The notes: generated from the sequence alone by a model not told the origin. DNA of 64,000 bases from Candidatus Gottesmanbacteria bacterium (GCA_963711735.1 CAVQFA010000005.1:135525-199524), one strand, 5' to 3'; positions 38,381 through 43,200 are shown, numbered from the stretch's first letter. Translations and numbers: made by a program.

Positions 38381-40273
38381 TTGGGCAGGAATATACTTAG
38401 CTTGCCCATGGCGAACCAACAAACCTATACCGTCAAACAAGTATCCAGGATTTTGGGATACTCAACAAATTCCATTTATACATTCCTCAGGGAAAAACGG
38501 ATTAAAGGTGTCCGTGTCGGCAAAGGAAGATTCCGCATTCCTCAGACGGAACTTGACCGGTTACTCGGATTATCCAAAAATGCCAAAACCGTAGCGGAGT
38601 CGCAGATTGTTGCAAGTCCCGTAACCCTCACACATGCGGGAGAGAATACCTCTCCAACGGGCGTAGATTTTCTGTCAGGGGAAATGCATGACTTTGATAT
38701 TTCTAACTTATTTGATTGGTTTGTGGGAATCGGAAGCATATGCATCGGCCTTTCGATGATGCTTTTCACCCATGCATTTGAAGAATTTCCCGTGTCAGAA
38801 TCTTTTGCTTCATGGTCAATCGTAGTCCGTATAGCGCTTTTCTCCGGCGGAATCGGGTTTCTCATAAGCGACCTGTCCGGTAAAAAAAGCCGTCTCTGGC
38901 ATACTGTTTTTCATATCCTCGTATCCGGGGCATTTGCGCTTCTTGCGTATATGTACTTCGGTTTCGGCGACAAAGAGGGAAGTATCATGTACGCAATTAT
39001 TGCGCTTCTTCTCCTTTTCAGACTTTTCGTCTCATCAATAGGACCGGGAATTGCATTCCCGATGGGTCTTTTAAGTGCCATAAGCATCGGACTTGCCGTG
39101 TGGGTACCGAATGGGTATATCATCACGCACATTCATGAATTTGTAGGATCATCGGATGAAATACGGATTGTTGTGACAGTCATTGCAATACTTCTCGGAT
39201 TTATATCATTTTCTGTATCGCGCACTCATTCGTACTGGCTTAAACATGCAGCGACCGGAGGAATAGCTCTTGTCTGTATCGGACTCTCCGGAATTTTTGC
39301 CTATGAGATGCTCTGGGGAAGAGCATTTCTTTTTCTTCTCGGGGGAATACTTTGTTTCATAGAACCTTCCTGGACCCGTTTACAGTACGGACACTTACGG
39401 AACAAGAGGATTATGACGGGTCTCATGGGTACTATATTAATTCTCATTATTTTGGCAATTTCCGTCGTCCGGCTCGTACAGACCGTTACGCTCGAATACG
39501 CGCGTGCGGAGCTTGCATCGAAAGCATCATTTGCAAGGTTTCTCGTCAATTCCCAAATCGATGCGGCGAGGCTCACAATTGAGAACGGATCGGATAATCC
39601 GGGACTTATCGCGTCGTATGTGCCCGGAAAGAAGGCAAAAACAGAAGACACAACGTCAATTCTCCGTGCTCTCTATGATGCGCGGGGATCTCTTTATCGT
39701 ATTGCTGCAGTCTATCCGGACGGGAAAGTAAACAGTGTCTACCCGTATGCCTCATCGGGGCTCGTAACAATACCTATCGATATCGTGGCAAAAGCAATGG
39801 CAACCAGGCAAACAGTGATGAGCGACTTTACCGGCGAGGAGGGTAAATCGTATATTGTCATTGCCTCTCCGATGGCAATATCCAATGAAGAAATACCAGG
39901 AGTTCTCATCGGATTTGTCGATACTTCCATCATCGGAATGAGGCTGTCTGAGCTTGTCAATACGGCGCATCAGGAATCCGCGGGCGTGTATGTGAAAAGC
40001 GGCAAGTTGCTTGTCGGAGGTGCAGGCGGCAGTCTCCCGAATATGCTTGATGAGATACCTTCTTTCCGGGGCGGGAGGAATATAACGGTCGAGGATACGA
40101 TCGATGATAAGGGATGGACAATTGTGTTGTCTGAACCGGTCTCGCAGATCATGGGTGCGACACACACCTACGCAATCACCGTATTTCTCGTTCTTGCTGT
40201 CGGACTTATCATATTTTCCATTCCGTTTCTTATGAGGAGGTCGGGACTTGCTCTCGCGGAGGGTGCGCCATGA
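38381..40273 (+). CDS. Membrane sensor-like protein (630 aa) with an N-terminal HTH_17 DNA-binding domain. It then has about 8 TM segments, an extracytoplasmic Cache-like domain and a C-terminal TM.
   Basis: The HTH reads '[38 protein letters not shown]'. A hydrophobic block spans aa ~110..330, and the Cache-like segment reads '[40 protein letters not shown]'. Its stop overlaps the start of the next gene (ATGA at 40270..40273). Confidence 0.85.
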
Positions 40274-43200
40274 GGTATGGTCTGAGGTGGAGTATGGGAA
40301 AATTACATCGCTTCTTTAGGGGGACTTTGTTGTTTCCGGTTTACTCTGTTAAAACTTTTGATTGTCGGAACGATTATTCTTTTTTTTCTTCCATATATAA
40401 TAAGCGAAACCATACATCTCAAGCAAACGGATTTGCCGCTTTGTACTTGCTCCTTTTGGCATCCGTTGTCGCAAGTGTCGTGTTTGCTTTTATTTCGGGC
40501 AAATCTCTTCCCGGGTTTTCACCAAATACTCCGTCAACCAGTACGGACATATCCTCTGAACACGTCAGTGTCGTAACGGAGGACGTACTCGCGCGCAGTG
40601 ATTTTTCCGGTCCGTTTATCACCACCGTCCTTCGCACTGACGGATCATTCACGTATGCGTTTATAGAAAACGTGACCGTAGCTGAAAGCAAATTTGTCGG
40701 GGAAGTAGCTCTCAGATTTCCCAGTGGTGATTACGGAACACTAACTGAACGGGACGGAACGTTTGACATATTTTATACGAAAAAAGGAAGTAAAGAAACA
40801 GTAGCGATTGCCGATAGGATGATAGCCGGCATTCGGTTGCCGGACGGGACGATTCTTCCCCTGACATTTAAAACCGCACGCATTCATGACGGTAGGCTGA
40901 CAGGCGACGCACATGCCCTTGCGTACGCTGATAAAAAAGATATACAGGCAGTGTTTTCTCCGAGAGGTGAGCTCGTACGTGTTCGTGTCCGTCCGTCTTT
41001 AGCTACTCCTGACGGAACAGCAATACTTATCACCCGCGAGATACTGAAGCTCGTGTATGAAACGCATGGAGAAGAGGAAGATGTGCTTGGGATAACCTCC
41101 GTGCGGCCGCCGCTTACCAGACGCGTCGACCCGGTCGTGAGAGAAGAAACAGCAAACATGGGGATTATTGCATCTCCTGTTACTGCAACGCGGTCGGTGG
41201 ATGAAGGGACCGTTCGGCTCATTTCGCAAAGCGGGTCACAATTGTCTGTTTCCAATATCGTCAGTCTTTCACCCCAGCTTACCGTTACGGAAAAAGACGG
41301 AGTCGTGCAACTTCAATTAAGCGATACATTTCTTTCCGCATCAACGCAAACCGGCATGGGTCCAACCGGCGCATCCGGGAAAAACGGTACTTCAACAGAA
41401 ACGGGAAGCGGAGGAACCGAAGGTGCATCCGGTCCGACAGGATCTACCGGAGTTAAAGGCGCAACGGGAGAAGAAGGAGAATTTGGTCCGACCGGAGCAA
41501 CGGGAGGAACCGGAGCAACGGGAGCAACAGGAGAAGAAGGTGCATCCGGCCCGACAGGAGCAAGCGGGGCAACAGGTGCAACGGGAGGTATAGGTGCTTC
41601 AGGTCCGACCGGTTCAACAGGAAGTGTGGGTGAAACAGGACCAACCGGATCAACAGGGTCAACCGGAACTGCTGGGTATGCGGGACCAACAGGATCAACG
41701 GGATCAACAGGTGCGACCGGAAATGCCGGTCCGACAGGTGCAACAGGTTCAAGCGGTTCTGCCGGTCTTCCGGGACCAACGGGAACAACAGGTGCAACCG
41801 GTGCAACCGGACAGTCAGGTCCGACGGGTGCAACCGGTGGGTCAGGTGCATCAGGTCCAACCGGTTCAACAGGAGGAACCGGAGAGCAAGGGGCTTCCGG
41901 TCCCACCGGTTCAACAGGGGGAACGGGAGAGCAAGGAGCATCCGGTCCGACGGGGGGAACCGGAATACTTGGTGCAAGCGGTCCAACCGGAGTAACCGGA
42001 GCCACAGGACCAACGGGAGATAACGGACCCACCGGATCAACAGGAGGAACGGGAGAGAGTGGTCCGACAGGTGCCACAGGAGAAACAGGAGCTTCCGGAC
42101 CAACCGGAGCAACGGGAACTACCGGAGAAAACGGACCTACGGGTTCAACCGGTGGAACCGGTGAAACAGGCGCATCCGGTCCTACCGGATCAACAGGTTC
42201 AACCGGTGAATCAGGCGCTTCCGGTCCGACCGGTGCTACAGGAGAAACAGGCGCATCCGGTCCGACCGGGGCAACCGGATCAACAGGAAATAACGGACCA
42301 ACGGGGGGAACTGGTTTGCTTGGTGCAAGCGGTCCAACCGGAGGAACAGGAGCAACCGGGCAGTCCGGACCAACGGGTTCTACCGGAGGAACCGGAGAAC
42401 AGGGAGCATCCGGTCCAACGGGTTCAACCGGAATTCTTGGTGCTTCAGGTCCAACCGGGTCAACCGGAGCCACAGGACCAACAGGAGATAACGGACCGAC
42501 CGGCTCAACCGGGGGAACCGGAGAGAGCGGCCCGACCGGTTCTACAGGAGAAACAGGTGCATCCGGACCAACAGGATCAAGCGGGGCAACCGGAGAGTTT
42601 GGTCCAACGGGATCAACCGGATCAACCGGCGAAACAGGCGCGTCCGGTCCAACCGGATCAACAGGTTCAACCGGTGAAACAGGTGCATCCGGTCCGACAG
42701 GGGGAACCGGGACGCTTGGTGCTTCAGGTCCAACCGGGTCAACCGGAGCCACCGGACCAACGGGAGATAACGGACCCACCGGATCAACAGGAGGAACGGG
42801 AGAGAGTGGTCCGACAGGGGGAACAGGTGCTACCGGAGAAAATGGTGCATCCGGACCCACAGGGTCTACAGGTTCAACCGGGGAAACAGGCGCTTCCGGC
42901 CCGACCGGATCAACCGGTGGTACCGGCGAAACAGGTGCTTCCGGTCCCACCGGCACAACCGGTGGAACAGGACAATTCGGTCCAACCGGAGGAACAGGCG
43001 CAACGGGAGAAAGTGGTCCCACCGGGGGAACAGGCGCAACCGGCACAGTCGGTGCTTCCGGACCTACCGGCTCAACCGGATCCACAGGCGCAACCGGGCA
43101 ATCGGGTCCAACCGGTTCAACAGGAGCTACAGGCGAAAACGGACCAACAGGTGCAACCGGGTCTACCGGAATAGTCGGTCCCACGGGTTCAACCGGATCA

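Follow-up and report, generated by a model that had tools for sequence, protein, structure and literature searches.

A candidate membrane-bound fibre switch in Candidatus Gottesmanbacteria: an excisionase-type sensor gene paired with a giant collagen-like fibre gene and a phased repeat array

The stretch analysed here (the window) comprises 64,000 nucleotides (nt) of a Candidatus Gottesmanbacteria bacterium assembly (GCA_963711735.1 CAVQFA010000005.1:135525-199524) and carries four fibre genes, numbered 1–4 in the order of their positions. Directly upstream of fibre 3 lies a gene for a predicted sensor-regulator, in which a DNA-binding helix-turn-helix (HTH) head is followed by ten predicted transmembrane (TM) helices, with an extracytoplasmic sensor domain between the last two; we refer to it as the sensor. 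Sensor and fibre 3 form a two-gene module that is conserved among relatives, and a phased, operator-like array of short direct repeats lies just upstream of the sensor. The features of the module are as follows, with positions counted from the first letter of the window, lengths in amino acids (aa), structural features from AlphaFold2 (AF2) models and model confidence as the predicted local distance difference test (pLDDT):

38225..38254, plus strand: promoter-like site (TTGACA, 18 nt, GATTAT), 10/12 consensus matches
38276..38330, plus strand: 10-nt direct-repeat array, sites at 38276, 38286, 38298 and 38308 (10-12-10) and a weak fifth unit
38408..40273, plus strand: sensor-regulator gene (HTH_17, linker, nine TM helices, dCache, TM helix), ATG start, 621 aa
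38426..38566, plus strand: HTH_17 domain, excisionase/MerR-type winged HTH, cytoplasmic (aa 7-53; Pfam and NCBIfam profiles)
38579..38692, plus strand: disordered tether from HTH to first TM helix (aa 58-95, pLDDT <50; length varies in the family)
38708..39481, plus strand: nine-helix membrane block (aa 101-358; AF2 helices match Kyte-Doolittle segments)
39485..40162, plus strand: extracytoplasmic dCache-fold domain (aa 360-585; AF2 and Foldseek)
40166..40249, plus strand: last TM helix, followed by a short cytoplasmic tail (aa 587-614; AF2 and hydropathy)
40270..40273, plus strand: ATGA overlap of the sensor TGA (40271-40273) and the fibre 3 ATG at 40270, read from the sequence
40270..50082, plus strand: fibre 3, 3270 aa
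40432-40500, plus strand: fibre 3 TM anchor (aa 55-77)
40507-41379, plus strand: fibre 3 conserved N-domain (aa ~80-370)
41404-47133, plus strand: fibre 3 collagen GxT repeats
47629-48267, plus strand: fibre 3 Gly_rich_2
49432-49626, plus strand: fibre 3 H_lectin
49924-50070, plus strand: fibre 3 SH3_3, terminal

Full-length homologues of the sensor reach E 1e-90, and a profile search covering 1.84 billion representatives returned, at E<=1e-30, 277 clusters (50% identity), nearly all of them 600–690 aa long and matching end to end. Scanning one genome per species yielded 39 sensor loci; wherever a record title names a lineage it is Gottesman-, Roizman- or Collierbacteria or other Patescibacteria (many records carry generic labels of metagenome-assembled genomes), and by the records searched the family is confined to the Microgenomates of the Candidate Phyla Radiation (CPR). 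The longest open reading frame (ORF) of the window sensor begins at a TTG (38381..40273). The homologues all open with MxxTYTVKQ, and because their N-termini and the public gene call on the identical contig agree on the ATG at 38408, we take the gene as 38408..40273.

The pair is constant among relatives. In 36 of the 37 sensor-anchored loci that have downstream sequence, a homologue of the fibre 3 N-domain is the next gene on the same strand, at a gap of -4 to +173 nt. These partners are large TM-anchored proteins whose first ~300 extracellular residues are 23–46% identical to the fibre 3 N-domain (30–46% in 34 loci, 23–24% in two Collierbacteria loci), and 29 of the 36 are collagen-like. Conversely, when metagenomes were scanned with a 6-sequence alignment of the fibre N-domain, the sensor (or its C-terminal part) lay directly upstream in 11/11 loci. 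A homologue search with the fibre 3 N-domain was empty, giant proteins seeming irretrievable by that route, and the N-domain matches come instead from local BLAST on the fetched loci. Because the synteny holds in both directions, sensor and fibre 3 constitute a conserved reciprocal two-gene module, and the link between them that had been drawn in an earlier, sequence-only reading of the window is thereby extended to the lineage.

The domains ascribed to the sensor in that reading are also borne out. Its head scores 35.4 bits against the Pfam profile HTH_17 (PF12728, cut-off 27) and 31 bits against the NCBIfam profile TIGR01764 "excise" (cut-off 28.8), while a PDB sequence search with the HTH gave one weak match, a phage Gp37 chain (E 0.05). 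An AF2 model built on 30 family members (pLDDT 80, predicted template modelling score 0.70) comprises a winged HTH, nine membrane helices, a long stalk helix with two PAS-like modules after it, and a last helix, so that HTH_17, polytopic region and final TM helix are supported by profiles, AF2 and hydropathy together. The loops of the membrane block on the inside are K/R-rich, and since hydropathy and K/R distribution fit, the sensor is placed with its N-terminus inside and its Cache domain outside; W104, G148, W164 and W322 are among the residues of the block conserved in the family alignment. The outer domain has the make-up of a dCache fold, namely, over aa 330-585 of the AF2 model, a long N-terminal helix and two PAS-like modules, between two TM helices and on the outside. 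Foldseek against the PDB matched aa 360-585 to dCache sensor domains exclusively, with KinD (4jgq; TM-score 0.80, E 1e-7) best and Mlp24, Tlp3 and PctA among the further matches, and dCache_1 (PF02743) is present in >100 full-length homologues.

The junction of the two genes is tight. Direct reading shows the TGA/ATG overlap with the 3270-aa fibre ORF that had been reported, and the same 4-nt overlap recurs in 13 relatives. The co-translation that had been read into it is a less settled matter: a GAGG box precedes a second ATG, in frame at 40294, so that the fibre start is not fixed, and in relatives with the overlap the extended frame passes through elements that elsewhere do not code. As there is no ATG, GTG or TTG from 40330 to the TM anchor, fibre 3 starts no more than ~60 nt from the sensor stop, unless the rare ATA at 40393 is used. 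Judged from this arrangement, the two genes are very likely tightly packed and co-transcribed here, and true translational coupling is possible.

Upstream of the sensor, comparison of relatives brought out a repeat array that the window by itself would have concealed. The sequence-only reading had pointed to the repeated TTGTAAAAAC at 38278 and 38310; both exact copies are present, and both prove to be units of the conserved, phased, operator-like array. Exact and 1-mismatch TTGTAAAAAC across the window amounts to four matches, which is chance level, and none of them is near another fibre; two copies alone are thus statistically meaningless, and the signal emerged only when relatives were compared. 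A position weight matrix (PWM) gives the repeat consensus as A-Y-TTGTAAAAA-Y-T and scores the four window sites at 17.0, 14.3, 10.8 and 17.4 bits. Of 38 related loci, 36 have an identically phased array immediately before the sensor. Arrays in the family have 2–6 units, successive sites are spaced by 10 nt (66 cases) or 12 nt (15 cases), and the 10-12-10(-10) pattern recurs in many loci. The 602 kb of loci contain 78 repeat clusters, where shuffled sequence has 1. Immediately before the sensor there are 37, and immediately behind it, inverted, 23; of the other 18, most stand 1.2–2.9 kb upstream, next to a starch-synthase-like gene and the divergent gene of a 317-aa protein. The window itself has exactly one cluster, at the sensor, where shuffles of a 64-kb window give 0.05.

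The array sits where an operator might be expected to act. An exact TTGACA precedes the first repeat by 16–70 nt in 34/36 loci (mostly by 38, 48–51 or 59–60 nt), and the array therefore covers the first tens of nt of the predicted transcript; some loci have a copy inside the promoter spacer, and in 9 loci the array ends 5–8 nt before the sensor start codon. A second, inverted array follows the sensor stop by 20–250 nt in 23/37 relatives (range L001-L031, L043-L050), so that two arrays pointing at one another enclose the sensor ORF. In 14/37 relatives, as against 5/190 control segments, the sensor stop is followed after 25–37 nt by a conserved GC hairpin with a T-run. In 9 of the 13 relatives with overlapping genes the extension of the fibre ORF is the translated inverted array, mostly with the terminator-like hairpin as well (L013, L014, L015, L016, L019, L022, L024, L027 and L029; example peptide ..GGLVILLGR..YKFLQVFTKK..), while in other relatives array and hairpin are intergenic. 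Neither is recognisable in the window, where 40329-40365 holds only traces of the inverted array. By its position, the inverted array could be a roadblock, the operator of a separate fibre promoter, a looping partner or an RNA pairing partner. A mobile-element reading, with the inverted arrays as transposon ends, was rejected, since gene order and orientation relative to both neighbours do not vary from family to family. A scan of viral contigs for the two-unit repeat found five AT-rich contigs, none with the sensor, and is uninformative.

What would connect the head of the sensor to this array is, first, conservation. Mean pairwise identity across the family is 85% for the HTH, ~30% for membrane block and Cache domain, and 15% for the linker, and an HTH so much more conserved than the remainder is what a fixed DNA target would yield. 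Precedent comes from BldC, a MerR-like winged HTH protein related to Xis, which binds variable numbers of direct repeats head-to-tail (PMC5859096), a mode that matches the 2–6 phased units seen here and so lends support by analogy. From the conserved HTH, from arrays that stay with the sensor and from this superfamily precedent, we infer that the HTH binds the array.

We therefore propose a model to which we give somewhat better than even credence: the sensor would be a transmembrane one-component regulator that binds the arrays and controls the sensor-fibre operon. Several HTH heads, held at the cytoplasmic side on a flexible tether of ~40 residues, would bind head-to-tail on the phased 10-bp direct repeats just downstream of the sensor's own TTGACA promoter. 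Binding would most likely repress transcription, because the array lies over the transcript start and, in some relatives, within the promoter spacer. A signal at the Cache or membrane part would then alter the oligomeric state or the reach of the HTH and so set the transcription of the sensor and of fibre 3, its packed, conserved partner. In most relatives the inverted array between sensor and fibre would give the fibre separate control; in the window, where that array has decayed and the ORFs abut, fibre 3 would most simply be transcribed by read-through from the sensor promoter. Given the conserved module and the operator-like array, the dedicated regulatory logic envisaged in the sequence-only reading is plausible for fibre 3, though not as one logic for all fibres, and the pair looks like a dedicated fibre switch conserved across a CPR branch.

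Several observations weigh against this model. The window sensor has no Pfam Cache match at E<=0.1 and misses the dCache_1 cut-off; its Cache domain is the most divergent part of the protein, with the DYF motif of the family reading DIV, and small-ligand sensing by this copy is doubtful. An HTH beside a membrane anchor need not bind DNA, as in RodZ. The PWM was trained on the same upstream regions in which it finds arrays; that training drew on neither the inverted arrays nor loci L043-L050, and both upstream and inverted arrays are present in the metagenome loci outside it. The sign of the proposed regulation is a guess from position. Co-transcription is not universal, given the terminator-like hairpin after the sensor in 14 relatives, and in some relatives the ATGA overlap may be an artefact of ORF calling. 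The 317-aa protein, finally, is the basis of the best-placed competing explanation, which is that the arrays are operators for another regulator such as this one, and that the sensor HTH has another target or a protein-binding role. Its family lies upstream of the sensor in 25 loci, it has a weak C-terminal DeoR/ArsR-type winged HTH (E 2e-4), and arrays flank its gene, 13 of the clusters found elsewhere lying 1.2–2.9 kb upstream beside it or the starch-synthase-like gene. We nevertheless regard this explanation as unlikely. The window lacks a 317-aa homologue throughout its 64 kb, yet its array is in place; in the Roizmanbacteria loci, from which the 317-aa gene is likewise absent, another gene stands upstream and the arrays are complete; the arrays hug the promoter and start codon of the sensor, not those of the 317-aa gene; and the 85% identity of the HTH would be left unexplained.

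A second possibility is that contact between HTH and array is architectural: it would tether the fibre locus at the membrane, where transcription, translation and insertion of the giant TM-anchored fibre could all take place. The sensor HTH is related to the architectural proteins Xis and RacA, the product is a membrane-anchored protein of 3270 aa, two arrays bracket the sensor gene in relatives, and transertion has been reported for a membrane-bound regulator system (PMC9977878). Such tethering would be compatible with regulation, but it explains neither the conserved extracytoplasmic dCache domain nor why the array lies over the promoter-proximal part of the transcript or, in some loci, in the promoter spacer, and we consider it rather improbable as the function of the arrays.

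To a further proposal, that the pair senses host attachment through contact or tension, we assign the same low credence as to tethering. The fibre N-domain would dock on the dCache domain or the membrane block, host engagement would be passed to the HTH heads, which would leave or occupy the arrays, and transcription of the fibre and of neighbouring glycan genes would be reset; fibre 2, in which two HTH domains are fused to the protein's own membrane anchor, would be a fused version. CPR bacteria (Patescibacteria) are thought to live attached to other cells, and such a mechanism, if real, would give this group a mechanosensory route, made of one protein, that leads from the fibre on the surface to DNA. 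A single-sequence AF2 model of the fibre 3 N-terminus (pLDDT 39) was unusable.

It is more improbable still that the repeats act in RNA, either as a 5' leader, rich in A/U, whose pairing with the inverted copy would make a stem for processing or translation control, or as the site of an RNA-binding protein. The array is within the predicted 5' untranslated region (ending 5–8 nt before the start codon in the nine loci mentioned), the downstream array of relatives is its reverse complement on the same strand, and own-locus RNA duplexes average -31 kcal/mol. Against this, own-locus pairing is no better than cross-locus pairing (not significant; permutation p about 0.09), the window has no inverted copy, the leader has no real Rfam match, and proteins arrayed along DNA would require a strict 10-nt repeat phased 10-12-10, whereas a stem would not.

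The regulator model, to return to it, places the sensor beside several known systems. Transmembrane transcription regulators (a DNA-binding domain and at least one TM helix in one polypeptide) are a widespread and established class, of which 50,302 were surveyed, and by that definition the sensor, with its HTH_17 domain and ten predicted TM helices, belongs to it; in that survey, HTH_17 occurs in 0.3% and dCache_1 in 1.9% of these regulators, and the dCache_1 entries examined there are fused to AraC-type HTH_18 (PMC10269533). As far as the survey is searchable, an excisionase-type HTH with ten TM helices and a dCache domain is not listed in it (PMC10269533). With ToxR, CadC and TcpP, as the same text describes them (PMC10269533), the sensor shares a cytoplasmic DNA-binding domain, a flexible linker, an extracytoplasmic sensing part, an adjacent operon as target (here predicted) and a direct-repeat operator. 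It differs from them in having an HTH_17 domain instead of an OmpR-type winged helix, ten TM helices instead of one, a dCache sensor, an occurrence in CPR Microgenomates only, and a fixed giant-fibre partner; having no Trans_reg_C match in Pfam, it falls outside the ToxR-like receptor family, though it would be similar in working. A related combination is seen in the dCache_1 + HTH_18 regulators such as BH0483 (PMC10269533), in which dCache and HTH likewise share one membrane protein, although in reversed order (dCache first, AraC HTH last), with an HTH of another superfamily and no polytopic block. BldC and the Xis excisionases (PMC5859096) have in common with the sensor the winged-helix superfamily and the absence of a dimerisation domain, and their sites—direct repeats of ~9–11 bp in variable number, bound head-to-tail on one helix face—compare with the 2–6 phased repeats here, but they are small soluble proteins, whereas the HTH here is the head of a 621-aa membrane sensor and its binding is predicted. 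The sensor is accordingly no member of the BldC family: its size and its membrane and sensor parts set it apart, and NF033787 does not match it.

Comparisons can also be drawn at the level of single domains. The outer domain shares the stalk helix and two PAS-like modules between two TM helices with KinD, PctA, Mlp24 and Tlp3, at 10–16% identity, but the output here is a direct HTH, not a kinase or chemoreceptor, and features of the family are lost in the window copy. We know of no fibre-gene link for dCache_1 + HTH_18 regulators. Collagen-like surface proteins with GxT/GPT repeats between an anchor and a globular C-terminal part are familiar from BclA of the Bacillus exosporium and Scl of streptococci. 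The fibres here resemble them in having such repeats (Pfam Collagen) and a PMT_2 glycosyltransferase nearby, and differ in being ~ten times longer, in being anchored by an N-terminal TM helix with a conserved juxtamembrane domain, and in ending with H_lectin, SH3 or Peptidase_S74 modules. In our literature search neither this architecture nor the repeat nor the fibre pairing was found described, and there was no report of partner sensing or surface-structure control in CPR/Patescibacteria. The module thus offers, lineage-wide, a recognisable sensor, a predicted phased operator and a defined target in the giant collagen-like fibre, that is, a testable circuit, of which the HTH and its 10-bp array can be tested without culturing the organism; if the predicted binding is real, direct-repeat binding in the style of BldC and Xis would extend to a membrane protein.

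The remaining fibres fall outside this picture. The sequence-only reading had held that every fibre gene in the window is physically linked to an HTH_17 domain, and its domain assignments survive profile search: besides the sensor, the tandem HTH_17 at the N-terminus of fibre 2 scores 68.9 bits in two stretches (E 4e-19), and a gene near fibre 4 scores 37.3 bits (E 3e-9). The latter is antitoxin-like and on the other strand, so that it is transcribed away from fibre 4; it has a close neighbour:

60113..60442 (ATG at 60406), minus strand: HTH_17 antitoxin-like gene, diverging from fibre 4
59685..60110, minus strand: PIN-like ORF of 141 aa, 2 nt from the HTH_17 gene ("PIN-like" from reading by eye)

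The 141-aa ORF has no Pfam or NCBIfam match; the pair at 59685-60442 looks like a toxin-antitoxin candidate. Classification of the domains speaks against a shared regulatory logic: the sensor HTH is excisionase-type and the fibre 2 pair BldC/HspR-like. The four HTH_17 domains share 10–17 identical residues over 36–47 aligned positions, those of fibre 2 sharing 10–13 with the sensor HTH. In fibre 2 (25010-25800) the tandem HTH_17/MerR-type domains have BldC, HspR and IS607-like as best NCBIfam sub-types (NF033787 matches weakly), and they are followed by a ~90-aa low-complexity linker, a TM helix and 8.4 kb of collagen repeats, an arrangement that would give this giant fibre a DNA-binding head in the cytoplasm. 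Collagen (PF01391) is above cut-off in both proteins (227.2 bits in fibre 2, 205.7 bits in fibre 3; 500-aa samples). Fibre 4 has a signal peptide and no sensor-type N-domain, and local BLAST on the fetched loci gave no match between the N-termini of fibres 2 and 4 and the partner N-domain. What the fibres have in common is collagen and C-terminal modules, and fibres 1, 2 and 4 are, as far as sequence can tell, paralogues outside the sensor-fibre 3 module.

That the HTH_17 domains form one regulatory system for all fibre genes of the island is therefore the weakest explanation, and we hold it to be highly improbable: the 64 kb do contain three HTH_17-bearing ORFs, all of them next to a fibre gene or part of one, the layout of fibre 2 (HTH, linker, TM helix, outside part) is like the sensor's, and a 4-seed HTH_17 hidden Markov model found no HTH_17 ORF besides the sensor in ~600 kb of relatives' flanks (a weak estimate of density), but the domains are 26–39% identical and of different sub-types, the third gene runs in the opposite direction, next to a PIN-like ORF, a shared operator motif is absent—the single array in the window is at the sensor, and no common motif lies upstream of fibres 2 and 4—and these two lack the sensor-linked N-domain; no homologue of the fibre 2 N-terminus was found, in a type of search to which giant proteins seem irretrievable. 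The claim for every fibre gene is moreover unverifiable, because the 5' end of fibre 1 is outside the window or frameshifted. The density of HTH_17 in the window is curious, and nothing ties the three ORFs together; the HTH_17 domains of fibre 2 and the gene at 60113 appear to be matters separate from the sensor. The earlier observation is thus largely right, and its interpretation holds for fibre 3 but fails when extended to fibres in general.

Some further features of the locus deserve mention. Many members of the sensor family have CCTGCC(C) directly before the ATG in place of a GGAGG-type Shine-Dalgarno box; in the window (38380-38407) TTGCCC stands at this place and, by eye, can pair with GGGCA ~20 nt upstream. 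Upstream of the sensor, most Gottesmanbacteria loci have GT4 glycosyltransferases, a PaaX-like gene, the starch-synthase-like gene (Glyco_transf_5) and the gene for the 317-aa protein (L004 4700-9715), some of them flanked by the same repeat arrays; this neighbourhood is not in the window, where fibre 2 takes its place.

Among the fibres, fibre 1 (3-10402) has no single spanning ORF: its Gly-X-Thr frame rotates ~43 times, nearly always by +1, at points where the unit directly following a GGN codon has 10 nt instead of 9 and, as a rule, a QS/ES-GPT unit comes next. The stretch 10405-14661 and fibres 2–4 hold one frame over up to 8.4 kb. The gene may be decaying, a frameshifted unit may have been amplified, or the rotations may be an artefact of assembly. 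The C-termini of the fibres are mosaic (14662-18432, 34400-38161 and 47002-50079), with Peptidase_S74 (a phage tail-spike chaperone) in fibre 1, H_lectin in fibres 2 and 3, and Gly_rich_2 and a terminal SH3_3 also in fibre 3; segments common to fibres 2 and 3 are 36–38% identical.

Two clusters on the minus strand complete the window. Between fibres 1 and 2 (18485-24337) lie type IV pilin-like genes (N_methyl, one with CarboxypepD_reg) and a protein-mannosyltransferase-like gene (PMT_2 + TPR), whose product could glycosylate the Thr-rich fibres. At 55282-59577, four genes for secreted or anchored proteins, one with a WxL-interacting-protein peptidoglycan-binding domain just below cut-off, look like another surface-structure cluster.

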